This document shows, piece by piece, positions 1,415-40,214 of a stretch of 42,281 bases of DNA. Each line of letters opens with the position of its first letter. The first letter of the stretch is position 1. The position numbers were made by a program, and so were the translations under genes. The notes under the pieces are model-generated. The model was not told where the DNA came from and did not search any database. It saw only the letters and a program-made list of their open reading frames with translations. Source of the stretch: a virus. Taxonomy: Duplodnaviria; Heunggongvirae; Uroviricota; Caudoviricetes. Where the stretch lies: the IMG/VR virus record IMGVR_UViG_2778261538_000003; one strand, 5' to 3'.

Positions 1415-1418
1415 TTAA

Positions 1419-1733: not shown

Positions 1734-1759
1734 AGTGGATCCCTCTGACAAAAGCAGGA

Positions 1760-2850: not shown

Positions 2851-3265
2851 GCCATTCAATATCGGGTGCTGTTGACGTATCAACACGCATCAGCAGCACA
2901 CGGTATTTCTTCCATTGGGTGAGAGTTGAAGTTTCTTCATCAGTTGCGATACCAGCATCAACAGCATCCTGACGCCAGGATATTTCACTGTCAGCTTTTG
3001 CACGAAATGTGGCTTTCATGTTTTCTGCATCTGATATTTTCTGTTCTGGTGAAAGCGGCGGCTCATCAACCCATGCAAGGGTCCCTGAAACCATTCCCAG
3101 CATTTTTCCTGTTGGCTTATTTCCCCCATTAAATCTGACAGCATCCTCATCGCTGATTTCAATACCATCCTGCGGCCATGTCCCCTCCTTGATATAACTT
3201 TCATATAGCGCTGCGTTGTAGATTGCATTTTCGGACGGGCTGTAAACACTTTTAACTTTATTCAT
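2822..3265 (-). CDS. tail fibre assembly protein (Tfa/U-like, expressed orientation)
   Basis: 147 aa ending ...VDTSTAPDIEWPTPPA; immediately downstream of the minus-strand tail-fibre gene. Confidence 0.8.
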   Translation of the reverse strand: MNKVKSVYSPSENAIYNAALYESYIKEGTWPQDGIEISDEDAVRFNGGNKPTGKMLGMVSGTLAWVDEPPLSPEQKISDAENMKATFRAKADSEISWRQDAVDAGIATDEETSTLTQWKKYRVLLMRVDTSTAPDIEWPTPPAAQAR

Positions 3266-3269
3266 TCTG

Positions 3270-4016
3270 TTATCTCCCTTTCGCTATATAGCAAAGATTA
3301 AACCCACCGGCGCCTGACATACGGGCTGTAAAACCCGTTCTTGAAGTACCAGTTGAGTTAACTCCATAAGCAGGCATGGTTGCTGGAGAAAGCAGAGACT
3401 CCTGGATATCTGCCATTGTCAGTGTAATTGATTCGACCCGCGCGGGGAAAGGTAGCGGGAAAACAACATTCGTCCCTGTCTGTCCAACGGGGAAACCGAA
3501 AATACCCCATTGTGTAATTACCCCATCCGGCCCCTTACTCCATCCAGATTTAGGATTCGGCCAGTCTGCTGCTCCAGAGTGCCCCGTTGTAAAACTACTC
3601 ATATCTGGTACTTGCCCGGTATCCGTTCCGACGTTCCTCGTTGCCGCTTCTCCCAAACCAAGGTTTTCGAGAGCTGTTTTCACCGTGCCGTCCGATTTGA
3701 TATCGCCAAACGGATTCTTGCGGCTCAGGTATTCAACAGCAAACCCCGATCCCAGCAATTCAACAAAACCGGGCAGATCACCATTATCAAGCACATCCCG
3801 TTGCGTTTTATCACTTACAAACTGGGCCAGAGCTGCAGCAATAAAGCTGGCCTGCCGAATAACCTTATTGACTTGCGCACTGGAGGCTTTCCCTGCTGTA
3901 AATCCAGATAAAAGCGCGGGCAACGCTTCCCATTCCTCCTGCGATATAACATTGGCATTTCGATCCGTTGCAAACGCTTTAAAGTCATTTTTCGCCATCA
4001 GAGTAATACTCCCCAT
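3270..4016 (-). CDS. tail fibre protein
   Basis: 248 aa, Gly/Thr/Ser-rich; last structural gene of the tail operon, followed by Tfa. Confidence 0.7.
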   Translation of the reverse strand: MGSITLMAKNDFKAFATDRNANVISQEEWEALPALLSGFTAGKASSAQVNKVIRQASFIAAALAQFVSDKTQRDVLDNGDLPGFVELLGSGFAVEYLSRKNPFGDIKSDGTVKTALENLGLGEAATRNVGTDTGQVPDMSSFTTGHSGAADWPNPKSGWSKGPDGVITQWGIFGFPVGQTGTNVVFPLPFPARVESITLTMADIQESLLSPATMPAYGVNSTGTSRTGFTARMSGAGGFNLCYIAKGR

Positions 4017-4678
4017 GCTCCTACATCAAAACCACTGATGAATTCGTTATCCATATCAAAACCAAAAAATTTTGAGCCTTCCGATGGGGTTTCCACCGAA
4101 GGTGTTTCAATGCCACCCGCCCATACCCCGGCGGCTTTTACTGTGAGATACCCCTGTTTAATTGCCGCAATTAACTCACGCGATACATCTGAAATATCAG
4201 TATCAGGAAAGACCCAGACCGATATCGTCATGTCCTGGTTATCGACTATCTGCATTCGCAGCCCGGATCCTGCTGTTGCCGCGTCAAGAATTGCCGGAAG
4301 CGAATCATTCCGTCCGTCCCAGTTATTAATCGCAATCTTCGCTTTAAGAATGACACGATAAGTTTCATCGCTGAGATACATGTATCCTGAATCAGGATCG
4401 TATGGTCCCTGCCATACCCCCTGATCATATCCAAGCCCGTCGGTATCCCAGCTGAAATAGACACCTGAGATAGGCTGGCTGACAACACGGCTACGTCCGA
4501 TCCACAATCCAAGGATGTCAAGTTGCACACCAACCGCAGAGTCAATATCAAATGCACTAATCAGCCCTCTGGTGGCAGCCGCAACATCAATAAGTGGCCG
4601 GGTCATCAGATCAACATGCGCAAGAAATTTAGGTTTGGTGGCGTGGTAGTTCGTGATTAGTTCGGTGTATTTGCTCAT
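3998..4678 (-). CDS. baseplate protein (gpI/XkdU-like position)
   Basis: 226 aa, overlaps neighbours by a few bases; gene order between baseplate J-like protein and tail fibre. Confidence 0.5.
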   Translation of the reverse strand: MSKYTELITNYHATKPKFLAHVDLMTRPLIDVAAATRGLISAFDIDSAVGVQLDILGLWIGRSRVVSQPISGVYFSWDTDGLGYDQGVWQGPYDPDSGYMYLSDETYRVILKAKIAINNWDGRNDSLPAILDAATAGSGLRMQIVDNQDMTISVWVFPDTDISDVSRELIAAIKQGYLTVKAAGVWAGGIETPSVETPSEGSKFFGFDMDNEFISGFDVGAWGVLL

Positions 4679-5874
4679 GACTCCACCGTTATAACGATAT
4701 TTTTCGGGGTACAGGACGCAGATTCGTTGTATCTGATATCAATGTTTGATGACGACAAAGCCCCCGGGGATTTCCCAATCGTCAGTTCCTGAATATCGTA
4801 ATAGCGTGCATTCCCGCCACTCACCACGCCAAGATTCGCCGGTGAGTAAATGCGACTTAAAAGGACCGAATCACCAATCATCAGACTATTGATATAGTCG
4901 GAAATAGCCTGCTGGATCTGCTGCCCTATCTGTGAGGTATAACCCGTAAAAACTTTTAATTTAATCAGGGCATAAACAGGCACATCACTGGAACGCGAGA
5001 ATTTGATTACATGGGGATTGCCGTATTTATCCGGAACCGTAACGGATGTTGTACCGTGAGTGGCTGTCCCCTGGCCTTTATTCCCTCTGATAGCCTGAGC
5101 AATATCCGTTACATCACCGCCATCCACAATTACAGCAACAGAGTGTGGCGGTAACCCGTTACCGTCCTCCGAACCAGTATCGTTTTCATAGAGTTTGTGG
5201 CGGGTTACACCGGTAACATTAGAAACAGCACCATCCAGTGCTTCAAATGGGGTTATTGATGGCAACGCAACACTTTGCGACTGGCGGATACGTAACTCAG
5301 CGTCAGTTTCTGCCGGAGTGCCCACAGTGGCTGCAGCAGGATTGGTTACCGAAACCCAGCCACGGGTTGGCGTATTAATTTCAGTGATAGTTCCAGCCAG
5401 CGCCGCCACTGCACCACTGACGGAACATGTTGCGGTCACCATCACTGTACCATCCACGCCTACCACCACTGAAGCAGGCAAACGCCATATCACATTATTA
5501 CTGTCTTTCACGCTGCCATTAATGATGGTTGTTCCGGCAGTTCCTGTAAGAAGCAAATCAACCGTAGAGTTCGTCGCGCCTTTACGTGAAATACCATTTA
5601 TTTTCACGTTACAGGTCAGTGCAGCCCCATAGCCGGTTGCCGGTGAAAAACAGTTGTAGACAGTTATCGCAGTATTATTGGCATCATGAATCGCCAGCGC
5701 CATCAGAGCCACCATCTGGCCGTCTTTGCTGTCCGGTTCGAGGTAGGCATCACTGCCATAAATCTGCTGAAAATAGCTAATCAGGGTGCTGAGTATCGTC
5801 TGATAATCAGGCGCACTGATCCCCTCCGCGGTTACCTTTGCAGATAAACCGAGAGAATCAAGGTTCAGAGCCAT
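4675..5874 (-). CDS. baseplate J-like protein
   Basis: 399 aa; size and position typical of the baseplate wedge protein in contractile-tail operons. Confidence 0.6.
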   Translation of the reverse strand: MALNLDSLGLSAKVTAEGISAPDYQTILSTLISYFQQIYGSDAYLEPDSKDGQMVALMALAIHDANNTAITVYNCFSPATGYGAALTCNVKINGISRKGATNSTVDLLLTGTAGTTIINGSVKDSNNVIWRLPASVVVGVDGTVMVTATCSVSGAVAALAGTITEINTPTRGWVSVTNPAAATVGTPAETDAELRIRQSQSVALPSITPFEALDGAVSNVTGVTRHKLYENDTGSEDGNGLPPHSVAVIVDGGDVTDIAQAIRGNKGQGTATHGTTSVTVPDKYGNPHVIKFSRSSDVPVYALIKLKVFTGYTSQIGQQIQQAISDYINSLMIGDSVLLSRIYSPANLGVVSGGNARYYDIQELTIGKSPGALSSSNIDIRYNESASCTPKNIVITVES

Positions 5875-6227
5875 TACGCCTCCGATGTAACAGTCGTTAT
5901 TCCATAAAGAGTGTCGATTTCAGCGGAAAACATGACACGTCGGGTCGTGGTATCCAGCGTCGTATTGAAAGAGAGGATTGATTTAACGCCCTGCGTTTCG
6001 AGGATGCGCTTACGGATCGCCAGGTTGTAGGTTTCCGGCTTCTGCTTACCGAGTACGGACTGGATCCACGGAGTCCCCTCGGTGGTGTCGAGAAACCATT
6101 GCCCATACCACAATTCGAATCGCGTTTTTACCGCCTGCGCCACGGCCTCCGGTGAGTTAATCAGCCAGGTGTCATCACCGCTGCCAAAGGTGTAATCGCC
6201 ATCGGCGTCTTCACGTCTGTATCGCAT
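5874..6227 (-). CDS. small baseplate protein (gpW/gp25-like position)
   Basis: 117 aa; stop/start overlap with the flanking baseplate genes. Confidence 0.45.
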   Translation of the reverse strand: MRYRREDADGDYTFGSGDDTWLINSPEAVAQAVKTRFELWYGQWFLDTTEGTPWIQSVLGKQKPETYNLAIRKRILETQGVKSILSFNTTLDTTTRRVMFSAEIDTLYGITTVTSEA

Positions 6228-6979
6228 CAGTTTACCCCGTCGGTACTGCTTCCACCGCGCTGAACACCACCATGAGTGTGCGTATCATCGATTGGCTTGC
6301 CGTTAGCCTTCACGCTCCCCAAAAACTCAACAGCACCAGTGATTTTTGAAGCCACACCAGAAACCACAGACCCCACCATGCCCCCCATCCAGGTTAACAG
6401 GCCATGAATGGTTACTTTCTCAGAAAAATCAGCCAGGGGGGCAACCACATCAAGCCCCCCCGGAGCGACAATTTTAATTTTCCTGGTATCAGGATTAAGC
6501 TCAAAATAGGTGCTGCCGTCGTCACTACGCAACTGTGTGGCACTGGTATTAATACCGCTAATCTTCCTAGCCTGCGACTGGGGACCGACAATACAAAACG
6601 CATCCGATAAATCATGCATTCTGTCATCAACCGTCTCCTGTATCCCGCCGCTCTGCCACCAGAAATCAATACAACGATCGGCAAAAACGACAAGACACTC
6701 ATCCCCAGCTTTTACCGGAAAAGTCAACGTACAGCCTCCGCCGCGCGGGAATACCACTGGCACATCCACCAGCAATGGGTAATTTTTGGTAATGCGGTTA
6801 CCGTCGTTATCCTTTTCAACTGACCGGATAGCTGGCTGCACAACCGCCGTCACCGCGTCAGGATCGAATGACTGAATAATGCCAGGCAAGGCGACACGGA
6901 TCTGGTTCTTTGTTGTTTCCCGTTCAGATTTAAATGTTTCGGCAAGATCGCCACTGCGGGTCTGGTCAGTTACTGCCAT
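6227..6979 (-). CDS. baseplate assembly/spike protein (gpV-like position)
   Basis: 250 aa with Gly-rich C-terminus; first gene after the cargo cassette in the baseplate block. Confidence 0.5.
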   Translation of the reverse strand: MAVTDQTRSGDLAETFKSERETTKNQIRVALPGIIQSFDPDAVTAVVQPAIRSVEKDNDGNRITKNYPLLVDVPVVFPRGGGCTLTFPVKAGDECLVVFADRCIDFWWQSGGIQETVDDRMHDLSDAFCIVGPQSQARKISGINTSATQLRSDDGSTYFELNPDTRKIKIVAPGGLDVVAPLADFSEKVTIHGLLTWMGGMVGSVVSGVASKITGAVEFLGSVKANGKPIDDTHTHGGVQRGGSSTDGVN

Positions 6980-6990
6980 TGGTAGGCTCC

Positions 6991-7013
6991 AAAAAGCAAA
7001 AAACCCGCCGGGT
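6991..7013 (-). terminator. possible terminator downstream of the tail-module cargo cassette
   Basis: Short GC hairpin (ACCC-GGC-GGGT) followed by TTTTTTGCTTTTT on the minus strand; weak stem. Confidence 0.3.
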
Positions 7014-7039
7014 GGCAGGTTTTATCTCATGAAGAATGA

Positions 7040-7552
7040 CTATCGGTGGATAGTATTAAAGTATTCAGAAAGCTGATTATCAGTTATCAAACACAACTGC
7101 ATCAAATAAATAGAGTATTTCAATAACTTTTCATCACGAACGGGGGCGGGACGTAAATACTTCCCGCCGTGAAAGAGATTATTTCTTATATACGGGATCT
7201 GCTTTAATGCTTCAGCAAGAGAATGAGGTTCGATTGGAGGTTTATCCTCCCACGAAAAATCATGCCTCTGCTGCTTCACAGGTTGCTGACATAGATACTC
7301 AACTGCCCTATCGACATTTCTATTTCCAGTAGGATATAAAGGCCGCGTATCATCAGTAGCGTAGCGGCTCCAGTCAGCACCGATTAGATAATTTCTACGA
7401 TCAGTTTTTTTGAAATTAATTCTTTTTAACGCATATTCGAAACGCGAAAAATAATTAAAAAACCTTATAACAAGAGTAATATCAATTCCGCCGAGAAGTT
7501 CCTGAAAGTCAGGGTCTTGAAATGAATTCAAAGGATCATCATCAACTGTCAC
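7040..7552 (-). CDS. hypothetical protein with a HEPN-like R-x4-H motif (cargo gene in tail operon)
   Basis: 170 aa, AT-rich; contains IRNNLFHGG; start overlaps the upstream gene by 4 bp. Confidence 0.5.
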   Translation of the reverse strand: MTVDDDPLNSFQDPDFQELLGGIDITLVIRFFNYFSRFEYALKRINFKKTDRRNYLIGADWSRYATDDTRPLYPTGNRNVDRAVEYLCQQPVKQQRHDFSWEDKPPIEPHSLAEALKQIPYIRNNLFHGGKYLRPAPVRDEKLLKYSIYLMQLCLITDNQLSEYFNTIHR

Positions 7553-7884
7553 TTGCTGCTCACTTTTTTACACGGGAAAGATCCAATGATTTTCGGCGCG
7601 TCCATGCTGTTCTGCAGCAGCTGGACGTTCAGGAAAGCTTTTCCGTTACGTTTCACAAACTCAAAGCCGTAATTGTTACCATCACGGGAAGGCATCAGGC
7701 CCATGTCCATTTTCATGTTTGAATAGTCACCATCTTTTCCCAGAAATTTTATCTTCTGTGATGTGACAGTTTCACCGTTAATAACAGTCATTCCGTCACC
7801 GGTCATCGTGTAGTTGCCGCACTGAATTGCAGCCATCGCCGGAGCAGTAACCATCATAACTAACGCCAAACATAACCGTTTCAT
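7549..7884 (-). CDS. secreted/periplasmic hypothetical protein (cargo gene in tail operon)
   Basis: 111 aa; N-terminus MKRLCLALVMMVTAPAMA-AIQ reads as a Sec signal peptide with AxA cleavage site; start overlaps the stop of the upstream tail gene. Confidence 0.55.
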   Translation of the reverse strand: MKRLCLALVMMVTAPAMAAIQCGNYTMTGDGMTVINGETVTSQKIKFLGKDGDYSNMKMDMGLMPSRDGNNYGFEFVKRNGKAFLNVQLLQNSMDAPKIIGSFPCKKVSSK

Positions 7885-8948
7885 TAAAGCCCTCTTTCCC
7901 TCGCTGATGAGGAAACAAGATCCGCCGCGCCACGCGCTTCACACATCATATCCATGTACCACGCCTGGCCCCTTGTGTCGCCAGTGTACATAATCCCGCG
8001 CACAATATAAACGCCATCCGTTGCGATGCTGGCAGGCTGCGATGTGGTGCCGCTGAGCGTGATATTTCCGTCCGTGTTCTGGTCGGTGATCTGACCACCA
8101 GCCATCGCAATATCGTTGTTCGACAACGCGGTACGATAGACGGAAGCCTGATCCAGCTGAATGAGCCCGTTAACCCGGATGTTCGGATTAATAAGCGCGC
8201 GGACGTTTACGCCGTTACCGATAGTCTGCTGCGGCATTCCAATAAGCCCGGTAGCGCTGTTGAGCACAATCGCTTCGTGAACATATTCGTTATTCACCAC
8301 CATCTGGCGCTGACCGTCCACGAATTGCCATGTTGCGCCACATTGTCCGGCTACGTTATCCATTAGATGCCGCGTCATGCCAAAGAGTACCCGCCCCCGG
8401 GGGAATACAGTAGCAGGCATTTCAGGCGTCAGGCCTTCGGTCGCGCCTTTGGCTTCGAAGTCTTTCATCAGCGCACGGTTCACATCAGCGACCGTGTAAC
8501 CGGCAGCCAGCGTCTGTGAGGTTATACTGGTAGCAAAAGCCAGATCAGTATCTGCTGCCTGAATCAGGACGTAGGTATCAACCGGACTGTCTTTTCCTGT
8601 GACCGAGTAGCGAATTTCACCGCTGAAAATCAGTCCGTAGTTGCGGCCATCTCTCTGGCCCACGTCCGCCGCGTCAACTTCCCGCACGGTCCCTACGTCG
8701 CTTGCTGACACCTCCGGCGCGATACCGTCGTAACCGGCAATCAGACGCACTTTCGAAAACTCCTGCCCGGTAATTCGGTTCACAGTATCTGCCGAGAGGT
8801 TATAAATTTTGATAGTCCCTACCCGGGACGCGCTGCTGATGTTGAACCAGTCGATCGTAAAGGTGACTTTGAAATCACTTAGCTCAATTCCCTGACCGTT
8901 CCCGTCCACAAGCTGCAGCTCGAAATGTCTCATCCAGTTCTGTGACAT
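7884..8948 (-). CDS. tail/baseplate hub protein (gpD/XkdQ-like position)
   Basis: 354 aa; gene order after tape measure in a sheath-tube tail operon. Confidence 0.45.
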   Translation of the reverse strand: MSQNWMRHFELQLVDGNGQGIELSDFKVTFTIDWFNISSASRVGTIKIYNLSADTVNRITGQEFSKVRLIAGYDGIAPEVSASDVGTVREVDAADVGQRDGRNYGLIFSGEIRYSVTGKDSPVDTYVLIQAADTDLAFATSITSQTLAAGYTVADVNRALMKDFEAKGATEGLTPEMPATVFPRGRVLFGMTRHLMDNVAGQCGATWQFVDGQRQMVVNNEYVHEAIVLNSATGLIGMPQQTIGNGVNVRALINPNIRVNGLIQLDQASVYRTALSNNDIAMAGGQITDQNTDGNITLSGTTSQPASIATDGVYIVRGIMYTGDTRGQAWYMDMMCEARGAADLVSSSARERGL

Positions 8949-8950
8949 GC

Positions 8951-9253
8951 TTACTCCGTTGATACCAGTAAATGGCTGCGACCGCCCAGGTCAGTTTTTG
9001 TGGGGTAATCCTGTGTGTTGTCATCACAGACCACCACCAGCTTAAAACCAAGCCCCATACAGGCGTACTGCGCCAGCAGGTCAGCACCAGTGACGAGAGG
9101 AATACCGGAGATTACCGGCTCCCCTCTGTCGTTCTGCAGGTCCATAATCCAGTACAGATCGCGCCATATGATGCTAATCCGCCAGGTGACACCACCCAGG
9201 ACGATGCTGAACTGCTGGTTGTCCGCTGTCAGCGGAATTTCCTGAATTGTCAT
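8951..9253 (-). CDS. tail protein
   Basis: 100-aa ORF coupled to neighbours in the tail operon. Confidence 0.4.
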   Translation of the reverse strand: MTIQEIPLTADNQQFSIVLGGVTWRISIIWRDLYWIMDLQNDRGEPVISGIPLVTGADLLAQYACMGLGFKLVVVCDDNTQDYPTKTDLGGRSHLLVSTE

Positions 9254-9840
9254 TAGCCGCCCCCCAGTAATGACGCCACGTTACCCGTGATGCTTTTCAG
9301 CAGTGAAGTATCTGGAGGCTTTGTGGTTTTGTTGCCGCTGTTCTGTACCGCCGACGTGCTGGCCCCTTCCTTCATGTTGGTTTTATCCGCGACGGTAATC
9401 TGCTGTGTCCGGGAGATAATGACCTCCCTCAGGGTGAGGACGGCGGACAGGACGTTTTCGGTTGTCTTGTCCGTCGTCACTTCCAGCGCCCGGATCAACA
9501 TGTTGCTGTACAGCCGTTTACCGGTTACCACATCGAAGGGGATACGGCTTTCCTGCAGACCCAGTAGCTCCTGATACGTCTGCTGAGGACTCAGGCCGAG
9601 CAGGCTGGTAGCCGTCAGGTTACTGGCAAAATCCAGCAATGCGCCGCCACCGGCGAAACCAACCTCCATCACCACTTCTGACGGTTTTTTATAGGCATGA
9701 TCAGCGACAGCGGCCCCGACCTCTACCGGATGCTCTGTTATTTCAAGCATATCTGTATGCTTCTCTGAAATAACAACACTGGGAACAATCATTCCTATTT
9801 TTCTGCTCTGCTGATGAAAAAGTGTAGAGAGAATATCCAC
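9253..9840 (-). CDS. tail protein
   Basis: 195-aa ORF immediately downstream of the tape measure gene. Confidence 0.4.
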   Translation of the reverse strand: MDILSTLFHQQSRKIGMIVPSVVISEKHTDMLEITEHPVEVGAAVADHAYKKPSEVVMEVGFAGGGALLDFASNLTATSLLGLSPQQTYQELLGLQESRIPFDVVTGKRLYSNMLIRALEVTTDKTTENVLSAVLTLREVIISRTQQITVADKTNMKEGASTSAVQNSGNKTTKPPDTSLLKSITGNVASLLGGG

Positions 9841-11825
9841 TAACCCACCCTCACCTGATTACTTCGCATGACCTGAGCATTTGCAGACTGTTGCCGACGT
9901 GCAACCTCATTACCGACAGCGTGCGGATCTCCGCCACCGTAAATGTGGTAGGTATTTTGCTGGTTAACCTCTGTCACTTTGCCACTAATTCCCGCCACGG
10001 CAGCCTTATTAATCAGCTCTCGAGAATAGATATTTCTTCCATTCTCATGCTGGATAATGCTGCTCATCAATGCTGACATGGTTTGCGGATCGCTCATATT
10101 CAGGGCAGCCCGGGGATCCACTCCCAGTCGTTGCGATACAGCCCTGATATACGCTGTTGTGTTGTTATTATCAGACGCAGGTGCCCAGGTAGAGATAATT
10201 TTCTCCACACTGTTTATTCCCCGTCCGGCGTACAGCATTAACTGACGAGCAAGAGCCCGTAATCCATCAAAGGCAGTTTCAAATCTGGCAAATCGCCCGC
10301 CCGGGCGTTCAAGAGAAGCCCCTGCCTGACCAGCAAAATTAAGGTTTCCCGGATTGTTATTCCGTTCTCCTCGTTTCGTAGCCTGTGCATATTGTTCCGG
10401 CTCAGCACCTGGAATATCTGACTGAATATTTGCGCCTTTTACGGTATGAGGATTACGACCAAAATCGGTATCAATGCCAAGCCAGCGCAATGAATCTCCA
10501 ATATTTTGTTTCGTGTAATCCCAGGATGACTTCGCACTGGCACCAATATTTTCGCGATCAGAGTACAAATACGCAGCATAAGCCATCCAGCCTTTTAACC
10601 ACGGCGGGACCGGCAAACCTGATATTTTCCCGAAAGCCCCCAGAACCCTGGATACCCAGACACCCGCGATGAATGTACCAAGGATTTCCAGTGCATTTTG
10701 CCAGCCGCCAACACCATCTTTTAGTTCCAGAAGGTGATCACGAAGCCAGGTGATCGCATCCTTCGCTTTATCTATTGCCGGTTGCCATTTTTCCCAGTCG
10801 ATAAGACTGTTACCGCCTTCTTTCCATGTTTTGTAGTCTTCCCACAAGAGACCGAGAGCCACGATCAGACCGGTAATCAGCCCTATAGGTGACATCCAGA
10901 AAGTAGAGTTAAGTATCCGCATGGCGACAACCAGACCGCCGATAACCTCTATCAGGGTTTTCGTTTCGGCATCCAGTTTCCCCCACCACTCGATGATATC
11001 TCCGACACCATCGACTATCCGAAATGCTACCCGCCCGACTATCTCACCCAGCCAGAGGATCCCCTTTATGACCTTTGTGATGGTGACTTCAATTTTGGGA
11101 AAATTTTCAATTATCTTTTTGCGCAGGTTATCAATCTGCCCCGCCAGTCCGTCCGCAAGATTCGATCCGATTTTGTCCCGCGCCATCCTGGCCATTTCAC
11201 CGAGCGATTTCAGCGAGGTCATAAACCGGTTTGACGATAAGGCAGCCTGATCGGCATTAAATCCGATCGCTTTCACCATTTCTGAATACTGAGCGCTGAA
11301 CTGCCCCACTCCGCGACGCATAGCCATCAGGGTATTTTCGTCAATGCCCAGCATCTGCGCATACTGGTTAGCCCGGTAATACGGCATGCTGCTGAGTTTC
11401 TGTCCAACGCCCGTAAAGATAGCAGCCATGTCACGCATGTTACCGCTGGCATCACGGGTCTGTACGCCCAGGCGATTCAGAAAGCCTTCTGCTCCGGGAT
11501 TGTTACGAATAAACCGGGAGAGGCTTTCCAGAGAAGATCGCGCAGCGTCCACACTGCCGCCAACCTGCGAAACCGCATAGCCAATAGACTGAATTCCCTG
11601 GACCGTCGCGCCGGTGCGCTGTGACGCCCAGTAAAGATTATCCAGGCCGGAGGCGATCTTAGCCGTGAAGGCCACCACGGACAGCGCAGCCCCTTCAACA
11701 GCCAGCCCCATTTTGATGACATTTGCAGTTGTACCGGCGAGGACAGAACCGAACTTTTTCGCTCCTGCATCATCCACACGGAAGCCAAGCGAGACGAGGA
11801 AATCTTTAATAGTTTCAGCGTTCAT
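9840..11825 (-). CDS. tail tape measure protein
   Basis: About 660 aa, Ala/Gly-rich with predicted helical and TM-like segments; lies after the chaperone pair. ATG at 11825 with GGAG/AGGA upstream is preferred over the TTG at 11846. Confidence 0.7.
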   Translation of the reverse strand: MNAETIKDFLVSLGFRVDDAGAKKFGSVLAGTTANVIKMGLAVEGAALSVVAFTAKIASGLDNLYWASQRTGATVQGIQSIGYAVSQVGGSVDAARSSLESLSRFIRNNPGAEGFLNRLGVQTRDASGNMRDMAAIFTGVGQKLSSMPYYRANQYAQMLGIDENTLMAMRRGVGQFSAQYSEMVKAIGFNADQAALSSNRFMTSLKSLGEMARMARDKIGSNLADGLAGQIDNLRKKIIENFPKIEVTITKVIKGILWLGEIVGRVAFRIVDGVGDIIEWWGKLDAETKTLIEVIGGLVVAMRILNSTFWMSPIGLITGLIVALGLLWEDYKTWKEGGNSLIDWEKWQPAIDKAKDAITWLRDHLLELKDGVGGWQNALEILGTFIAGVWVSRVLGAFGKISGLPVPPWLKGWMAYAAYLYSDRENIGASAKSSWDYTKQNIGDSLRWLGIDTDFGRNPHTVKGANIQSDIPGAEPEQYAQATKRGERNNNPGNLNFAGQAGASLERPGGRFARFETAFDGLRALARQLMLYAGRGINSVEKIISTWAPASDNNNTTAYIRAVSQRLGVDPRAALNMSDPQTMSALMSSIIQHENGRNIYSRELINKAAVAGISGKVTEVNQQNTYHIYGGGDPHAVGNEVARRQQSANAQVMRSNQVRVG

Positions 11826-12057
11826 TATCCTCTCTCCATTTCTCAATGCGTCGCTGGTTATCCGCTTTTACCGCCAGATGGTCATTCAAGAGAGCAATGT
11901 CATACAAATCGACAGAGCCATCTTTAAGTGCTGTATAAGGAATTAACCCGGCGTCAACCGGATTGAGAAGGTAGGACAGCCCGTCCGGCAGGCTGTTAAA
12001 CGTCAGCCCTGTTGCAGGCTCTGCGTCGTGCTGGTAAGGGGTGTAGGCAAAAAATTT
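11815..12057 (-). CDS. -1 frameshift extension of the tail assembly chaperone (GT-like product)
   Basis: Slippery heptamer A_AAT_TTT at 12051-12057 in the zero frame; the -1 frame then stays open for about 80 codons to a TGA at 11815 that overlaps the tape measure start. Confidence 0.5.
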   Translation of the reverse strand, partial: KFFAYTPYQHDAEPATGLTFNSLPDGLSYLLNPVDAGLIPYTALKDGSVDLYDIALLNDHLAVKADNQRRIEKWREDNER

Positions 12058-12455
12058 CCCAGCGAATCGGCGACCACCCGCGCCACCAGCTGCAGCATGA
12101 CCAGCAAGTCAATATCATCAAACATCAGTTCGCCCTGGGTAAATACCGGCACCCATCCGTCCATATGACGCCGCGATACCACCGCAAGACAGGGATGAAT
12201 AATCGCATCGGTGTCATCTTCGGTCAGGGAAGACAGTTCCTCAGCGATACGCGGGAGCATGGTTTCAAACACCGGTTTTAACTGTTCGAATTTCACGGTG
12301 TCGATTTTGCCGTCAGCAGGCAAACGGGAGCGAATACTCCCGAAATCTGACATCATTCCTGCCAACACCGGCAGAAGTTTGCGGGTCACTTTCAGTTGGT
12401 CAAAAACGCTGAGTTTTGCCGTGCGATATTTCACGCCTTTAATTTCGAATTCCAT
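12003..12455 (-). CDS. tail assembly chaperone (G-like)
   Basis: 150 aa, acidic; located between tail tube and tape measure genes. Confidence 0.6.
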   Translation of the reverse strand: MEFEIKGVKYRTAKLSVFDQLKVTRKLLPVLAGMMSDFGSIRSRLPADGKIDTVKFEQLKPVFETMLPRIAEELSSLTEDDTDAIIHPCLAVVSRRHMDGWVPVFTQGELMFDDIDLLVMLQLVARVVADSLGNFLPTPLTSTTQSLQQG

Positions 12456-12458
12456 GCA

Positions 12459-12899
12459 TTAAAACTCCCCGAGAACCTGGTCAATCTTGCCGCAGTCAAA
12501 CACCCACGGCATCGTATTACCGGTTTTAGCGTTGGCGTTATCCGGTTGTTTCTGGAACGCAACACTGCGTGCCGTGATGATGTCGCCGCTGACCTTGTTG
12601 CGGATAACGATAACGTTATTCCCCCATGTGGCAGAAGACTGGCTCTGTGCGTTATACGCCAGCGACAATTTTTTATTTGTCGGTGATGTCTTCAGAAGGT
12701 TAACGGTAATCGTCCCGCTTTTATCTGCATGGAGGCTGTGCATCACTTCACCATCAGCACCGATGGTCATGGTGTTTTTAGGACCGCCCATCGCAACCAC
12801 AATCCCCTCTTCAGAACTTGCCGAACCGTACCCGAGGTCAATCGAACCGGTCGGCCCGGTCAGCGTCGCAGTGACATCCATAAAAGAATAGGTAGACAT
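12459..12899 (-). CDS. tail tube protein
   Basis: 146 aa directly downstream of the sheath gene. Confidence 0.6.
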   Translation of the reverse strand: MSTYSFMDVTATLTGPTGSIDLGYGSASSEEGIVVAMGGPKNTMTIGADGEVMHSLHADKSGTITVNLLKTSPTNKKLSLAYNAQSQSSATWGNNVIVIRNKVSGDIITARSVAFQKQPDNANAKTGNTMPWVFDCGKIDQVLGEF

Positions 12900-33544: not shown

Positions 33545-34174
33545 TCACTCAGGAATCTTAATCTTTCTCAATTCTTTATTTAGTTCACAGATCTTTTTCT
33601 TAGACGGGAAAGTATCATACATCCAAAAACCAACAGTCTCTAAAACTATTATCATAACCATATACACAAGATAATTTAAAAGGCCTTCATTTTGCCCTAT
33701 GGAAATAATGCAGATAATAGAAAAAAGGGTAAACAGCACAAAACACAGAAAGGAAAACAGACGACTAATAATAAATAAAAAACCTGAAAAATCAACATTA
33801 ATAAAAAACACTCCGTTATCTTTCTCTATATAATTCTGAAGCTTAATCAACTGATTTATATACTGTCTTTTTTCTAATCTATTGCAAATGTAAATAACAT
33901 CTCTTCGGTTATAAGAGGATTGCAATTTCAGCGCATCACGAATAATTTTATCATTTATTCTTTTTTCTATGGCTTTCTTATCCTCCTTATCCAGATAACG
34001 TTCATACTTAATTAAATATAAAATTAACTTCTTGACATATTTAGGCTCTTTATACTTATAATTAAAAATGATCTTTCTTATCCAGACTCCCATAACAATC
34101 AAACATGAAAAAATATATCCAGCTATTTTCTCCAGATGCTCTGTATGGTCAATCAAGTATTGGATCATATGCAT
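33545..34174 (-). CDS. hypothetical membrane protein (very AT-rich cargo gene on the opposite strand)
   Basis: 209 aa, Lys/Ile/Tyr-rich with one N-terminal and two to three C-terminal hydrophobic helices; GC far below the flanking genes. Confidence 0.55.
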   Translation of the reverse strand: MHMIQYLIDHTEHLEKIAGYIFSCLIVMGVWIRKIIFNYKYKEPKYVKKLILYLIKYERYLDKEDKKAIEKRINDKIIRDALKLQSSYNRRDVIYICNRLEKRQYINQLIKLQNYIEKDNGVFFINVDFSGFLFIISRLFSFLCFVLFTLFSIICIISIGQNEGLLNYLVYMVMIIVLETVGFWMYDTFPSKKKICELNKELRKIKIPE

Positions 34175-34220: not shown

Positions 34221-36284
34221 ATGTCCAATATACTATGGGGCGACCTGGAAACCTATTGCGAAATCCCTATTACGAACGGTACCCATGCGTATGCCGAAGG
34301 CGTTGAAGTGATGCTTTTCGCATGGGCTATCAACGACGGGCCAGTAAACGTGTGGGATATCACTGCCGGTGGTGGTATTCCACACGGCTTATACGAAGCA
34401 ATCGCAGACCCTGAAACCCTGCTTTATTTCCATAACTCTCACTTCGACCGCACCGTTCTGCGTTATGCAATGCCGCGACTGGCACCGCCAGTCGAACGTT
34501 GGCGCGACACGATGGTGCAGGCGCTGGCGCACGGTCTCCCGGGGTCTCTGGGGGAACTCTGCGAAGTACTAGGCGTCCCGCAAGACAAAGCGAAGGACAA
34601 AGAAGGTAAAGCGCTGATCCAGCTGTTCTGTAAGCCACGTCCGAAAAACAGCAAACTGCGTCGGGCCACCAGTAAAACCCATCCGGAAGAATGGCGGCGC
34701 TTTGTTGCTTACGCCGGACTGGATATCGAAGCAATGCGTGAAGTCTATAAACGTCTGCCGAAGTGGAATTATCAGGGGACAGAGCTGGCGCTCTGGCATC
34801 GTGATCAGCAGATCAACGACCGGGGCGTCTGCATGGACATGCAACTCGCGCGCGCTGCGATCGAAGCGGTAGACCAGGAGCAAAAGCGCCTGGCAAAGCG
34901 TACACAGGAAATGACTGATGGCGAAGTGCAGGCAGCCACACAACGGGACGCGTTGATTAAGCACATCGTTGAATCCTACGGTGTGGAGCTACCAGACATG
35001 CAACGCAGTACCCTGGAACGTCGTATGGCCGACCCCGATTTATCATCTGCCGTGAAAGAACTGCTGGCTATCCGCCTGCAAGCCAGTACTACCAGCACCA
35101 GTAAATACAAGGCACTGATGAAAGGCGTAAGCCACGACGGGCGCTTACGCGGTACGCTACAGTTCTGCGGGGCGTCACGTACCGGTCGTTGGGCCGGACG
35201 GCTATTCCAGCCCCAGAACCTTCCCCGCCCTTCACTAAAACAGGAACAAATAGACGAAGGCATCGAAGCACTGAAAGCCGGATGTGCAGACCTGCTGTTT
35301 GACAATATCATGGAACTAACCAGTTCAGCGTTACGTGGCTGCATTATCGCGCCAACAGGCAAAAAACTAGTGGTAAGTGACTTGTCAAACATTGAAGGCC
35401 GTATGCTGGCATGGCTGGCGGGAGAAGAATGGAAACTGAATGCATTCAGAGAGTATGACGCTGGAACGGGTCCGGACTTATATAAACTGGCGTATGCAAA
35501 AGCTTTCGATATTGCACCAGATGATGTTGATAAACACATGCGTCAGATCGGTAAAGTCATGGAACTCGGTCTGGGTTATGGAGGTGGTGTATCGGCTTTC
35601 ATCACTTTTGCTCTGGTTTACGGTCTCGATCTCGACGAGCTGGCGAACGCCGCACTGCCAAACATTCCCCGCGATGTTATCCGCGAGGCAAAAAGCTGGT
35701 ACGACGAATCGGTTAAGCGTAAGTCGACCTTTGGCCTGTCCGAGCGTGTATTCATCGCATGTGACTCGCTCAAGCGCCTGTGGCGCAGGGCGCACCCGGC
35801 GACCTGCGATTTCTGGTACGAGCTGGAGCGCACTGTCCGCACAGCAATCGCCACACCGCAAAAAACATTGTATTGCGGCTATCTTAAAATCCGACGTGAT
35901 GGCGCGTGGCTGCGCATACAGCTACCATCCGGACGCGCTGTATGCTACCCGTCTCCGGTTATCGAACAAGGGAATATCACCTACATGGGTGTTAACTCTT
36001 ATTCGCGTAAATGGCAACGACTCAAAACCTACGGCGGAAAGCTGGTGGAGAACGTCACCCAGGCGGCCGCCCGCGACGTTCTAGCCAGAAACATGCCGCT
36101 GATCGAGGGTGCCGGTTACAGCATTGTGCTAACGGTACACGACGAGGTGATCACCGAAGCACCAGACACAGAAGATTTCAACGATAAAGCGCTTTCCGCG
36201 CTTCTCTCCACTAACCCCGAATGGGCACCCGATATTCCGCTGAACGCTGGCGGCTTTGAGGCGTACCACTACAAAAAAGATTGA
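34221..36284 (+). CDS. family A DNA polymerase with 3'-5' proofreading exonuclease domain
   Basis: Exo I DLETY; motif [11 protein letters not shown]; motif [13 protein letters not shown]; motif C VHDEV. Confidence 0.92.
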
Positions 36285-36348
36285 TATAACTCACCTTATC
36301 GAGCTATGGCGACATGCTGAATTCGAGTAAATTAAAGGAACAATACTT

Positions 36349-37110
36349 ATGCAGGAACTAACTGAAATGCCGATCAACTATCCATACCCGAGAGAATCTT
36401 TTCCTGACTTTTTGAGGGAGTGTGGGTTCACCAATTTTTCCCACGAACAGCGTGAGACTTATGACTGCTATCGTTTAACGAATGGCGTAATTGTTAACCT
36501 TTACACCACCCGGACCATTCAGTTTCAAGGGAACCCTCAAGAACGTCCCAATGTTGAAACTGCAATAATGTCCCATTTAGGAACGCCCCCCACGGCAACA
36601 CCACTAGCCGTAGAACAGCCATCTGAGCTTCCCAAAAAGATATTCATTGTTCACGGCCATGACCATACTGCAAAGGAACAACTTGAGCTAATCCTTCATA
36701 AACTTGGATTACCAGACCATTTCATTTTGCAGAATACGGGAGGGACTGGACTCACCATTATTGAAGAGCTTGAACGTGAAATTGGGCAAGGACAAACTGC
36801 TACTCGTTTCGGGATTGTTCTTTTGACACCTGATGATATGGGATACTCAAAGCGCGCCGGTGAAGCAGAAATCCAACCCCGCGCAAGACAGAACGTTGTA
36901 CTCGAGATGGGTATGCTTCTTTCGTCCTTAGGGCGCAGCAATGTAGCAATCCTTCAGAAACAGCACCTAGAACAGCCTTCTGATGCTAACGGGATTTTGT
37001 ATCTGAATTTCAACGACCATGTACGTGAAACAGTTCCTCGTCTAGTGCAACGGTTACAAAATTCTGGTTTCGAATTTACACAAGCTCAAATAGCTAACGC
37101 TTCCTCGTAA
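36349..37110 (+). CDS. TIR-like domain protein (COG4271-type) with unknown N-terminal domain
   Basis: C-terminal half carries KIFIVHGHD ... FGIVLLTPDD ... RARQNVVLEMGML ... VAIL, matching the TIR-like nucleotide-binding fold as recalled; own terminator downstream. Confidence 0.6.
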   Translation: MQELTEMPINYPYPRESFPDFLRECGFTNFSHEQRETYDCYRLTNGVIVNLYTTRTIQFQGNPQERPNVETAIMSHLGTPPTATPLAVEQPSELPKKIFIVHGHDHTAKEQLELILHKLGLPDHFILQNTGGTGLTIIEELEREIGQGQTATRFGIVLLTPDDMGYSKRAGEAEIQPRARQNVVLEMGMLLSSLGRSNVAILQKQHLEQPSDANGILYLNFNDHVRETVPRLVQRLQNSGFEFTQAQIANASS

Positions 37111-37132
37111 TTACCCCCTTATTGTTGATTAC

Positions 37133-37159
37133 AACCCTGCATTGCGGGGTTTTTTATTT
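37133..37159 (+). terminator. rho-independent terminator after the TIR-like gene
   Basis: AACCCTGC-att-GCGGGGTT followed by TTTTTTATTT. Confidence 0.7.
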
Positions 37160-37345
37160 GGGAATAAAAACCCTATGTCATTTAAATACCGGGACAGTCC
37201 GCTTTATTACCGGACTGCGCGGGAGGCTTTGCGCCTTGAACAGTCCAGCGGGTACGACCGGGCGATGCAGGTCTGGGCCAAAGCGAACGTCGGTTTGATT
37301 TTTGTCTGATGCAGAACATGCGCGAAAAGCGTAAGGAGGTGGACG

Positions 37346-37540
37346 ATGTCTAATATCGATAATAAAGGTTGGGGGTTCCCCGCCCTGTCGAAAAAAGCAC
37401 ATTTCTTTAATTCGGGGGAAGCCATATCACTATGCGGAAAATGGATGTTCACAGGTATCAGGATTGACGAATGGCATGACCATCCTGAGAACTGCGCTAT
37501 CTGCATGAAGAAACGCAAAAAGCAGGAAGGCGAAAGCTAA
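37346..37540 (+). CDS. small Cys-containing protein (possible zinc-binding)
   Basis: 64 aa with Cys/His scattered (CGKWMF...HPENCAICMKKRKK); stop overlaps the start of the VRR-NUC gene. Confidence 0.4.
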   Translation: MSNIDNKGWGFPALSKKAHFFNSGEAISLCGKWMFTGIRIDEWHDHPENCAICMKKRKKQEGES

Positions 37541-37824
37541 TGGCCTATGAACGTGAAAACCTAATCGAAAAGCACCTCGTCGCTGAAGTAAAAAAGGCTG
37601 GCGGGGTTGCCTTTAAGTTCGTATCTCCCGGTCTCCGCTCGGTACCAGATCGCATTGTTCTGCTACCCGGCGGTCGCATCGTCTTTGTCGAATGCAAAGC
37701 ACCAGGCAAACCACCACGACCTGATCAGTTGCGCGAGCATGAACGTCTGCGAAAACTGGGCTTTACCGTGGTAGTACTGGATAGTAAGGAGCTTTCATGT
37801 ATATTAGGCAAAAAATTACAATAG
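37540..37824 (+). CDS. VRR-NUC domain nuclease
   Basis: 94 aa with PD-(D/E)xK-like core (VPDRIVLLPGGRIVFVECKAPG) and downstream Q...LG..V motif typical of VRR-NUC. Confidence 0.7.
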   Translation: MAYERENLIEKHLVAEVKKAGGVAFKFVSPGLRSVPDRIVLLPGGRIVFVECKAPGKPPRPDQLREHERLRKLGFTVVVLDSKELSCILGKKLQ

Positions 37825-37839
37825 GAGTCTGTGTAAGCT

Positions 37840-38757
37840 ATGGCTAAGCAACAAACGAAAGAAATAAACCAAGATGATGTAAAAGACAACAAAAATATGC
37901 CACCTCATATATGCGGCATTATTATGCCAATTGCGGACATAGAAGGTTATCCCACTGGACATTGGAGAAATGTTCATGACATTATTTGTGAAGCATCAAA
38001 TGATGCCGGATTCAAGGCAAATTTGGTAAGTTCAGATGATGATGTTGCAGTAATACAAAAACGAATTGTTCAAAATCTTTATGAAAACCCCATAGTTGTT
38101 TGCGATATAAGTGCTCGAAACGCTAATGTAATGTTTGAATTAGGAATGCGTCTCGCATTTGACAAACCGACCGTAATTATTAAGGACGAGCGCACTCCTT
38201 ATAGCTTTGACATTTCATCAATTGAACATTTAGAGTACCCTTCGGATTTAAGATACCAATCAATCAATTTATTCAAAGAAAGACTTGCGAGCAAGATAAA
38301 AGAAACATATTTAAAGTCAGTAACTGATCCTGAATACACAACATTCCTCAAACATTTTGGCACTTTCAAAGTTGCACAACTAGACCAGAAAGAAGTATCA
38401 GAAACTGAGTATCTGGCATCTGAGATTAAAGATATCAAATCATTATTGATATCTCTTAGGGCAACAGCAACGACAAAATCCAGATTTTTCGACTCACCGA
38501 AAAATTACTCGCAGCAGGAAATTGACAACTCTGTAGATATTATTAAAAATGGAGTTGCCAGTTATACTATAAGGAGTGAAGGATTTAGTATATCAAAATC
38601 AGCACTAGAAAAGTTACGCCAAAGACTACACAACGCAGGATTTCAAGTCGAGCAAATAGTATTGACAGGAAAAGAAGTAATTATTCATCTGTCATCACCT
38701 TTAATAAATGAAGAAGAAAATATTTTTAAAGATGCAATAGTAACAGCACTATTATAA
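37840..38757 (+). CDS. NDT/TIR-superfamily domain protein with unknown C-terminal domain (AT-rich cargo gene)
   Basis: N-terminal ...NPIVVCDISARNANVMFELGMRLAFDKPTVII resembles the nucleoside 2-deoxyribosyltransferase-like / TIR-like catalytic strand-Glu motif; low GC; own hairpin terminator. Confidence 0.55.
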   Translation: MAKQQTKEINQDDVKDNKNMPPHICGIIMPIADIEGYPTGHWRNVHDIICEASNDAGFKANLVSSDDDVAVIQKRIVQNLYENPIVVCDISARNANVMFELGMRLAFDKPTVIIKDERTPYSFDISSIEHLEYPSDLRYQSINLFKERLASKIKETYLKSVTDPEYTTFLKHFGTFKVAQLDQKEVSETEYLASEIKDIKSLLISLRATATTKSRFFDSPKNYSQQEIDNSVDIIKNGVASYTIRSEGFSISKSALEKLRQRLHNAGFQVEQIVLTGKEVIIHLSSPLINEEENIFKDAIVTALL

Positions 38758-38770
38758 ATAACATTTTTAA

Positions 38771-38804
38771 AACAACAAAAGGTCTAAATTGGCCTTTTGT
38801 TGTT
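38771..38804. terminator. long hairpin, probable bidirectional terminator
   Basis: AACAACAAAAGGTC-taaatt-GGCCTTTTGTTGTT, a 14-bp stem with T-rich arms, immediately after the AT-rich gene and before the helicase RBS. Confidence 0.6.
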
Positions 38805-38819
38805 TAGGAGCCATATTAT

Positions 38820-40214
38820 ATGCCCCCAAAATATATACCTCGCCCCTACCAAGTTCTCATTATCAACCACGAAACCGAAACCCTGCGCGGCAACATCTGG
38901 GCGGGGATGGGAATGGGTAAAACCGTGGCAACGCTCACTGCGCTGGAAGATCTCTTTATGGCAGGGGCAGAAACATGCCCCGCACTGGTCCTCGCGCCGC
39001 TGCGCGTGGCTGCCAGCACATGGCCGGATGAAGCACTGAAGTGGGGACATTTGCGCAATATCGAGGTGCAGCCAATTATTGGTAATGCCAAAGCGCGCTC
39101 TATGGCGCTGACGAACAGCAACGCAAGCGTGTTCACCATCAACTACGATAACCTTGTCTGGCTGATTGAAGAATTGGGAGAACGATGGCCGTTCGGTACT
39201 GTCATTCCAGATGAAAGCACCCGGCTAAAATCCTTCCGGCTGCGCGGTGGTGGTAAGCGCGCGGCGGCGCTGGGCAAAGTGGCGCATAAGTATGTCCGGC
39301 GCTGGATAAATCTCACCGGTACGCCAGCACCGAACGGCCTGGTAGATTTGTGGGGACAATCGTGGTTTGTGGACCAGGGGCAACGTCTCGGGCGCACTTA
39401 CGGCGCGTTTACCTCACGCTGGTTCAACTCGATACAGTTTCCGGGGCAGAGCTGGACCAAACTGGAGCCTTTTGCTCACTCACAGGGTGAAATACAGCGA
39501 GCGTTAGCCGATGTAACCCTCTCGCTGGATGCGGCCGACTGGTTCGATATCAAAGACCCCATCCATAACGTAATCCGCGTGGATATGCCACCGAAGGCCC
39601 GTCAGCAGTATCGTGAAATGGAAAAGGAAATGTTCCTCGAGCTGAATGGCGAAGGCATCGAAGCACCGAACGCCGCGGCAAAGACACTGAAGTGTCTGCA
39701 AATCGCCAGCGGCGCAGTATACACAGATGACACCGGAAGTTGGTCAGAACTGCATGACACCAAACTACAGGCGCTGGACAGCATACTGACCGAAGCAGCT
39801 GGCGCACCTGTGCTGGTTGCTTATCACTGGAAACACGATCTTGAACGCTTGCTTAAAGCATTCCCTCGCGGTCGTCACCTCGACCAGGATCCACAGACAC
39901 TGCGCGACTGGAATTCCGGAAAGATTCCTGTTCTCTTTGCACACCCAGCCAGCGCGGGCCACGGCCTGAACATGCAGGACGGCGGAAATATACTGGTATT
40001 TTTCTCACACTGGTGGGACCTGGAGCAATATCAGCAAATTATTGAACGTATCGGCCCCACCAGGCAGATACAGGCCGGACACAATCGTCCGGTATTTATT
40101 CACCACATTATTGCTGCCGACACTATGGATGAAATGGTGATGGAGCGGCGCAACTCAAAACGAACAGTGCAGGACATCCTGCTCGATGCCATGAAAAAGA
40201 GAGGTATAGCATGA
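38820..40214 (+). CDS. SNF2-family helicase/ATPase
   Basis: Walker A GMGMGKT, DExx box VIPDESTRL and a C-terminal helicase region; 464 aa. Confidence 0.85.
   Translation: MPPKYIPRPYQVLIINHETETLRGNIWAGMGMGKTVATLTALEDLFMAGAETCPALVLAPLRVAASTWPDEALKWGHLRNIEVQPIIGNAKARSMALTNSNASVFTINYDNLVWLIEELGERWPFGTVIPDESTRLKSFRLRGGGKRAAALGKVAHKYVRRWINLTGTPAPNGLVDLWGQSWFVDQGQRLGRTYGAFTSRWFNSIQFPGQSWTKLEPFAHSQGEIQRALADVTLSLDAADWFDIKDPIHNVIRVDMPPKARQQYREMEKEMFLELNGEGIEAPNAAAKTLKCLQIASGAVYTDDTGSWSELHDTKLQALDSILTEAAGAPVLVAYHWKHDLERLLKAFPRGRHLDQDPQTLRDWNSGKIPVLFAHPASAGHGLNMQDGGNILVFFSHWWDLEQYQQIIERIGPTRQIQAGHNRPVFIHHIIAADTMDEMVMERRNSKRTVQDILLDAMKKRGIA

Follow-up and report, generated by a model that had tools for sequence, protein, structure and literature searches.

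The window analysed here, a 42,281-nucleotide stretch of DNA recorded as IMG/VR virus IMGVR_UViG_2778261538_000003, is a prophage of E. coli, integrated next to yfhL. At 37840-38757 it carries a gene for a 305-residue protein, hereafter the target, which we read, with a probability of roughly 0.55, as a single-protein abortive-infection sensor-effector that is probably an NADase. This one-protein reading is favoured because the gene is optional, AT-rich and terminated, and because its product joins a conserved TIR-like core with an invariant glutamate to a stalk and a diversifying tail. It is also favoured because the gene has no partner and is spread sporadically across phyla on phages, integrons and islands. 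What is new here is a very widespread, unannotated candidate defence family; the single-protein TIR-like sensor-effector architecture itself was already known.

The gene is a self-contained piece of accessory cargo (a "moron") in a swap-slot of the prophage. In the proposed mechanism, the TIR-like N-terminal core would be an N-glycosidase using Glu100 as its catalytic residue, with NAD+ as the most probable substrate, and it would be held inactive in the lysogen. The C-terminal domain, which is joined to the core via the helical stalk, would recognise a component of a superinfecting phage. Binding of this trigger would result in oligomerisation and, in turn, an active core, and the depletion of NAD+ would then stop phage replication, with the infected cell being lost.

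The gene, its core and its tail

The gene and the regions of its protein are listed below, where model confidence is given as the predicted local distance difference test (pLDDT).

37840-38757, forward strand: target coding sequence, 305 amino acids, ATG start
37840-37908, forward strand: residues 1-23, variable, charged N-terminal extension, predicted to be disordered (from the alignment, and pLDDT <50 for residues 1-19)
37909-38334, forward strand: residues 24-165, conserved flavodoxin-like TIR/NDT-like catalytic core (predicted; NDT, nucleoside 2-deoxyribosyltransferase)
38119-38181, forward strand: motif NANVMFELGMRLAFDKPTVII, residues 94-114; the codon GAA at 38137-38139 encodes Glu100, the candidate catalytic residue
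38236-38247, forward strand: Y133-P134-S135-D136, second motif common to TIR domains of the Cap12/PycTIR type; Y133, P134 and D136 are invariant
38254-38463, forward strand: residues 139-208, conserved helical linker or stalk (helices 139-162, 169-172 and 188-208)
38464-38754, forward strand: residues 209-305, fast-evolving C-terminal domain, candidate sensor; its folded part spans approximately 230-305 with the order bb-a-bb-a (b, strand; a, helix)

The target open reading frame (ORF) is a real gene and is AT-rich cargo. It has a GC content of 34.4% and a third-position GC content (GC3) of 25.8%, compared with 54.1% in the DNA polymerase gene, 54.6% in the SNF2 helicase gene and 49.2% over the whole window. 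An earlier note on this DNA, made by a model from the letters alone, had already remarked on the low GC content, and the difference from the adjacent genes (34.4% versus about 54%) bears this out. The protein is identical to RefSeq WP_001551510.1, which is labelled "hypothetical protein"; the exact sequence is present on at least 1000 public contigs and no record gives it a name. The 965 bases from 37840 to 38804 are found unchanged in 24 of 5426 complete E. coli genomes as well as in three induced phages, vB_EcoM-689R2, vB_EcoM-611R5 and vB_EcoM-606R2. When a 4-kb query around the gene was used, 159 E. coli genomes matched, of which only 24 contained most of the query; the remaining genomes matched the conserved core genes only.

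Conservation was examined using an alignment of 47 family members. Residues 24-205 are strongly conserved, with approximately 60 invariant positions that include C25, G26, P30, H41, W42, S64, R75, D89, S91, N94, N96 and E100, followed by G102, R104, D108, K109, K115, D116, E129, H130, Y133, P134, D136 and R138. The candidate catalytic residue, E100, is present in 47 of the 47 sequences. An AlphaFold2 model built on the same alignment has a mean pLDDT of 72.6. Here, the predicted core comprises b23-28, a41-55, b58-62, a69-80, b85-89, a95-105, which bears E100, b111-116, b130-133 and a139-162. The remainder of the model consists of a long helix at 188-208 and a compact C-terminal domain at 230-305 with a pLDDT of about 90. 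The predicted core agrees with both the TIR-type flavodoxin-like fold and the NDT fold, and the PADLOC TIR-effector model PDLC00733 gives weak agreement, matching the target with an E value of 1e-6.

Scans of the target protein with Pfam, NCBIfam, PADLOC and PHROGs placed no family above threshold, and the sole clear library match was to PHROGs 3634 and 10872, both of unknown function. The Pfam family CAP12-PCTIR_TIR (PF10137) scored 16.2 bits against a gathering threshold of 24.7 (E 0.011), with weak matches in 16 of the 47 relatives (best E 0.005). Nuc_deoxyrib_tr (PF05014) scored 13.2 bits against a threshold of 28.8, and 44 of the 47 relatives matched it at E<=1 (best 0.004). Comparison of the target protein and of the family profile with all PDB chains by sequence returned only noise.

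The motifs are more informative and can be read through a second gene of the window, an upstream TIR gene at 36349-37110. This gene aligns to solved Cap12/PycTIR chains over R(D/Q)NVV(F/L)E(F/M)G ... (L/Q)P(S/T)D, where the NVVLEMGM of the upstream PF10137 protein aligns to RDNVVFEFG in two Cap12 chains, 7un8 and 9lmq, and also to PycTIR 8jsj. When the target and upstream families were compared using hhalign (E 4.6e-4), the NVMFELGM of the target aligned with NVVLEMGM, and its HLEYPSD aligned with HLExPSD. At the YPSD position, the Cap12 and PycTIR chains show LP(S/T)D. The N-terminal strand motif of PF10137, (V/I)F(I/V)xHGHD, is not found in the target family; in the family of the upstream gene, this first strand contains F99, V101, H102, G103, H104 and D105. 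Glu100 and Asp89 of the target are invariant and the first strand holds no Tyr or Phe, as judged by sequence alignment. In addition, the target family has a specific, conserved insertion of approximately 11 residues, TPYSFDISSIE, before the last core strand (T119, S122, F123, D124).

From the predicted fold and the motifs, we place the core in the TIR/NDT assemblage as a divergent member that no database models, which is closest in its motifs to TIR domains of the Cap12/PycTIR type, and that Glu100 is likely to be the catalytic residue. The previous assignment to an NDT/TIR superfamily is right at that level, with the motifs fitting a Cap12/PycTIR-type TIR better than a canonical NDT. The 150-residue C-terminal domain of unknown type that had been described does lack a recognisable family, but its size is closer to 100 residues (approximately 206-305), as residues 139-205 form the conserved helical linker.

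The tail evolves on a different scale from the core. Among the 14 closest homologues, the cores are 88-98% identical and the tails 39-77%, and once core identity is down to 70-75%, tail identity is at chance level (12-24%). Across the family, 167 tails fall into 71 BLAST clusters, and a homologue search using the C-terminal domain by itself returned no match. This contrast in rate between core and tail has the appearance of a sensor signature, which makes the tail a candidate sensor.

Family spread and comparison with known systems

The family is very large. A word-indexed search found 4466 homologues at E<=1e-3, and a profile search of 1.84 billion representatives returned 9423 clusters (50% identity) at the same threshold, with 1394 at E<=1e-30. 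Nearly all of the clusters are 270-330 residues long and the match is mostly limited to the first 200 residues or so. A pattern scan placed relatives in at least 335 of 185,579 species genomes, which span the Gamma-, Beta-, Alpha- and Deltaproteobacteria, Bacteroidota, Verrucomicrobiota, Acidobacteriota, Planctomycetota, Lentisphaerae and Nitrospinota, and on at least 157 IMG/VR viral contigs. In a collection of 50,697 phage records, 20 match, all of which appear to be temperate or prophage-derived by name and host, and the family is absent from the well-known virulent groups in that collection. Among the matches listed, no relative carries a precomputed Pfam domain. Some relatives bear the label "RNA helicase", which was rejected since they have neither helicase motifs nor helicase domain matches. 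A housekeeping nucleotide salvage enzyme was rejected as well, as the gene is sporadic (the at least 335 of 185,579 species genomes above), AT-rich, mobile and located in a swap-slot. A published description of the family was not found in the literature searched, although newer DefenseFinder models or papers in subscription journals may cover it.

To look for partners, ORFs were called at 76 genome loci, and the products of the three genes to either side were clustered. The 407 neighbour proteins gave 386 clusters, the largest being integrases (4 loci) and transposases (3 loci), and beyond these no conserved partner gene recurs in the 76 genomes. Pfam assignments for 140 immediate neighbours comprised Phage_integrase (3), rve_3 (2), TIR_2 (2) and AAA_21 (2), the others being single matches that include housekeeping genes. 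About a tenth of the immediate neighbours match PADLOC at E<=1e-10, a rough figure since matches are counted per family and not per protein; these matches include mad3, mad8, PARIS AriA/AriAB, dCTP deaminase, viperin, CapP, KwaB, PD-Lambda-2_B and several PDC candidates. One metagenomic homologue adjoins PLD, TIR_2 and GmrSD genes.

The strongest argument for a protein that works alone comes from Vibrio parahaemolyticus. There, a homologue is positioned exactly between two attC-type repeats of a chromosomal integron array of 19 repeats (1-12822 of that locus), which makes it a one-ORF integron cassette. Other cassettes of the same array include one with a BstA C-terminal domain and many single-ORF ones without annotation. 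A separate observation concerns four Klebsiella lambdoid prophages with a target homologue, which also encode an Acb2/Tad1 hairpin-domain protein, around 12156-12440 of those loci. As Acb2/Tad1 is an anti-CBASS/anti-Thoeris sponge family, one phage would thus carry both a putative TIR-like defence gene and a putative anti-signalling gene.

Among known systems, two DUF4062 proteins resemble the target in overall design. Swarozyc is a TIR-like NADase that is activated when its auxiliary (AUX) domain binds the phage portal (bioRxiv 10.64898/2026.05.01.722283), and Evangelion, whose conserved core is joined to a diversified AUX region, depletes NAD+ and causes abortive infection (bioRxiv 10.64898/2026.06.25.731849). 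Shared with the target are a single protein with an N-terminal TIR-like core, a catalytic Glu near residue 100 (a candidate in the target), helical stalks and a diversified C-terminal auxiliary domain, as well as an occurrence on mobile elements in many phyla. In contrast, the target has no DUF4062 match at E<=1, none is recurrent among the 47 relatives, and its core motifs are CGIIMPI, NANVMFELG and YPSD. Its C-terminal domain is predicted to be a small bb-a-bb-a module, whereas the AUX domain of KpSwz is a winged helix.

Cap12 (in TIR-STING and TIR-SAVED proteins) and PycTIR, which belong to PF10137, share with the target the fold, the Glu of NVxFExG and the PSD motif, with E100, P134 and D136 invariant in the target. 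The target differs in falling below the Pfam cut-off, in its beta-1 motif and in its own insertion of approximately 11 residues. By Pfam, it contains no STING, SAVED or cyclic nucleotide-binding (cNMP-binding) domain, and its surroundings contain neither a cyclase nor a CD-NTase gene. In NCBIfam, Cap12, which is the closest relative by motif, is described as a CBASS NAD(+) hydrolase.

The likeness to the NDT superfamily, which includes MilB, DNPH1/Rcl, the nucleoside 2-deoxyribosyltransferases and DmtZ, is one of fold. The catalytic triad of NDT enzymes comprises a first-strand Tyr, an Asp or Asn and a Glu nucleophile, and DmtZ is a phage NDT-like dAMP hydrolase/transferase (PMC12884076). Unlike these enzymes, the target appears by alignment to be without the triad tyrosine, has an extra linker and tail, and is found in the context of mobile cargo and not of nucleotide salvage. 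It also differs from Thoeris-like two-gene TIR systems, as no ThsA-like effector gene recurs next to it in the 76 genomes. Retron-Eco1 (Ec86) has a TIR/NDT-like effector of abortive infection, which is an NAD+ hydrolase. That system needs a reverse transcriptase and multicopy single-stranded DNA (msDNA), and none such is present near the target or its homologues.

Swap-slots, the upstream TIR gene and the closing hairpin

The prophage has a replication module of the BPP-1/APSE type, with DUF2800, DUF2815, a family-A DNA polymerase, VRR-NUC, an SNF2 helicase, a helix-turn-helix (HTH) protein and an integrase. Homology to five related prophages is lost at 36272/37172, and again at approximately 37788 (37787-37793) and 38815-38855, and these breaks define two swap-slots.

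36273-37171, forward strand: slot 1, cargo of the polymerase/VRR-NUC region, holding the TIR gene 36349-37110 and a terminator-like site; context, outside the target unit
36349-37110, forward strand: upstream TIR gene (Pfam PF10137, E 3e-31; PADLOC candidate PDC-S35, E 1e-108)
37133-37151: terminator-like site of the upstream TIR gene
37778-37805, forward strand: weak promoter-like site TGGATA-16-TATATT, 9 of 12 positions matching
37788-37839, forward strand: left junction of slot 2, with the last 12 or so VRR-NUC codons (allele-specific), the promoter-like site and AGGAG before the ATG
VRR-NUC/helicase junction: slot 2, whose cargo is the target gene plus the hairpin
38770-38805, forward strand: terminator-like hairpin with an A-rich arm, a GGTC/GGCC core and a U-rich arm; 15-bp stem (13 perfect pairs), 6-nt loop
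38806-38855, forward strand: right junction of slot 2, with the ribosome-binding site of the helicase gene, its ATG at 38820 and its first codons

At the right junction, homology to the related prophages returns between 38815 and 38856. The target gene begins 15 nt after VRR-NUC and shares its strand with the early replication genes. A promoter scan gave 6 sites where 5.8 are expected from shuffles; none stands out, and TGGATA-16-TATATT is no evidence of a promoter. In related prophages, slot 2 holds other, unrelated genes, which are mostly on the opposite strand. In five E. coli prophages (L004-L008), these encode a 265-residue hypothetical protein, a 236-residue hypothetical protein, a Dcm methylase with a PI-PLC-domain protein, and a DUF6338 protein; slot 1 of L008 has a gene for an ATP-binding protein on the reverse strand. 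The slot cargo of these prophages provides uncharacterised candidates for accessory or defence functions.

The upstream gene and the target are separate pieces of cargo. In strains DETEC-P1056 and ECONIH2, the upstream TIR gene is accompanied by other slot-2 cargo. Conversely, a 75%-identical orthologue of the target occupies the same slot in a Klebsiella aerogenes prophage of this type, which lies at a different integration site, beside an exonuclease I gene, and lacks a TIR gene after the polymerase. More distant target homologues are likewise found by themselves, in the nin region of Klebsiella lambdoid prophages, beside an integrase island in Pseudomonas and in the cassette array of Vibrio parahaemolyticus. 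Two explanations had been offered for a pair of such genes on either side of VRR-NUC, a split system and successive cargo insertions. The split system was rejected, as the genes lie in separate swap-slots and each is found without the other; the separate slots, the TIR gene with other slot-2 cargo and the target without a TIR gene in Klebsiella aerogenes all agree with successive insertions. The earlier note described the two genes as independently terminated; the upstream gene has its own terminator-like site at 37133-37151 and the target its terminator-like hairpin. The spacing of 700 bp that it gave holds approximately, the exact gap from the end of the upstream gene at 37110 being 730 bp.

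Within the same prophage, the PDC-S35-type upstream gene is thus also a terminated single-gene cargo with related TIR-like motifs. It differs from the target in being the only one of the two to match the PDC-S35 model, in having its TIR domain at the C-terminus, which is the opposite order to that of the target, and in its slot and independent occurrence. PDC-S35-type TIR proteins form a very widespread family of about 250 residues with a highly conserved TIR domain. A search gave at least 7949 matches; among the 120 matches listed, identity in the TIR domain is at least 66%, and sources include Vibrio, Achromobacter, Desulfuromonas and Vicinamibacterales. Slot 1 of strain ECONIH2 contains a variant of the upstream TIR gene that is 71% identical in DNA.

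The hairpin starts thirteen bases past the target stop codon and stops 1 nt short of the AGGAG that serves the SNF2 helicase gene. It does close the gene, as previously described, and at 38770-38805 with a 15-bp stem is one base wider on each side than the 38771-38804 first given. With a folding energy of -21.8 kcal/mol (z = -4.9), it is more stable than any of 200 shuffles. It escaped a consensus terminator scan, as the U-rich run TTTTGTTGTTT is the 3' arm itself and does not come after it. Orthologous cassettes from Klebsiella aerogenes (L017, same prophage slot) and Enterobacter (L021) likewise end in a hairpin in which a short GC core (GGCC or GACC) separates an A-rich arm from a U-rich one. 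These differ in sequence from that of the window and also exceed shuffles (z -5.1 and -4.8, respectively). By this comparison, the design of the hairpin is kept and its sequence is not, which fits a putative intrinsic terminator, possibly bidirectional, that moves together with the cargo. In other contexts, homologues are without such a hairpin: none stands out in the lambdoid Klebsiella loci, and the Vibrio cassette has attC instead. As the helicase gene starts 15 nt after the hairpin, any termination would be partial or overridden. The helicase gene, presumed to be a replication gene, would need read-through, antitermination or an unseen promoter, and the same arrangement is present in L017.

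A third AT-rich gene, at 33545-34174 on the reverse strand (28.7% GC, 209 residues), lies between the DUF2815 and DNA polymerase genes; its product matches phrog_10579 (unknown function, E 7e-107) and appears membrane-associated by sequence. This spot looks like a further cargo slot because Klebsiella aerogenes prophages of the same type hold different reverse-strand genes there (199 and 164 residues). At 37172-37540, the window has what RefSeq calls an "ANR family transcriptional regulator", marked as frameshifted. Related prophages have the regulator intact, followed by a DUF4406 gene directly before VRR-NUC, and in that place the window has a 64-residue ORF at 37346-37540 (phrog_2358).

Competing explanations and implications

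Several results weigh against a one-protein abortive-infection sensor-effector. All curated family scores for the target are below threshold, the core model is only moderately confident (pLDDT 60-90), and hhalign of the target against the PF10137 family reached only 33% probability over 32 columns. The first-strand motif CGIIMPI, with C25-G26-x-x-M29-P30-I31 invariant, fits neither PF10137 (FIVHGHD) nor NDT. Neighbours in other genomes are mostly ordinary genes. In addition, the gene may be expressed in the lytic cycle and not in the lysogen, since it shares the strand of the early genes, follows VRR-NUC by 15 nt and has no promoter above chance.

The logic of sensor and effector could be the same with another substrate. 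Here, the core would be a nucleotide N-glycosidase that acts on nucleoside monophosphates (NMP), dNMP, NTP or modified nucleotides such as hydroxymethyl-dCMP (hm-dCMP) and that starves or poisons phage DNA synthesis, as in the MilB/DNPH1 branch. We regard this as unlikely: the fold ranking and the weak PF05014 matches speak for it, but the invariant CGIIMPI strand shows no apparent equivalent of the NDT triad tyrosine, PSD is a motif of Cap12/PycTIR, and all Pfam scores fall well short of their cut-offs. A gene that serves the phage itself would be an early lytic enzyme, either for reshaping nucleotide pools, as DmtZ does, or for destroying host immune signalling nucleotides as a counter-defence. 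Such a role appears improbable. It would suit the orientation of the replication genes, the distance of 15 nt from VRR-NUC and the lack of a significant promoter of its own, as well as the frequency of the family in viral contigs, its place in the early nin region of Klebsiella lambdoid prophages and the precedent of phage NDT-like enzymes (PMC12884076). It would not suit the integron cassette, the chromosomal sites that are without nearby phage genes or the distribution among phages, where well-known virulent groups are without the gene and only 20 of 50,697 records, all temperate-looking, have it. The gene is also optional cargo, in a slot that holds unrelated genes in relatives, and a hypervariable tail is unexpected in an enzyme of pool metabolism.

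It is very unlikely that the target is instead a TIR-like signal generator or adaptor dependent on a partner encoded elsewhere, a dead flavodoxin-like regulatory module or a toxin of another conflict system. The 76 genomes contain no conserved partner gene and the integron cassette argues for autonomy, while the approximately 60 invariant core residues, with a Glu, several Asp, Arg, Lys and His among them, point to an enzyme; a toxin would be at odds with the lack of a recurrent adjacent immunity or antitoxin gene. A more far-reaching idea, which we consider distinctly improbable, is that the target would be the first example of a very large family of one-protein immune sensors that crosses phyla and is modelled in no database. 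In these, a TIR/NDT-intermediate core would act by a chemistry new to defence, the cleavage of the glycosidic bond in nucleotides other than NAD+, e.g., phage-modified dNMPs, and the interchangeable tails of approximately 100 residues would be a library of receptors for phage proteins. The non-NAD+ chemistry is suggested because of the MilB-like hints in the fold.

If the target is a defence protein, as the single-protein sensor-effector reading proposes, a family labelled "hypothetical protein" everywhere would gain a function. The design of a conserved TIR-like core with a swappable sensor would then extend beyond DUF4062, and dozens of natural tail variants would be available to map the phage components that are sensed. 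In addition, the VRR-NUC/helicase junction of yfhL-type prophages is a site at which to look for more cargo genes.

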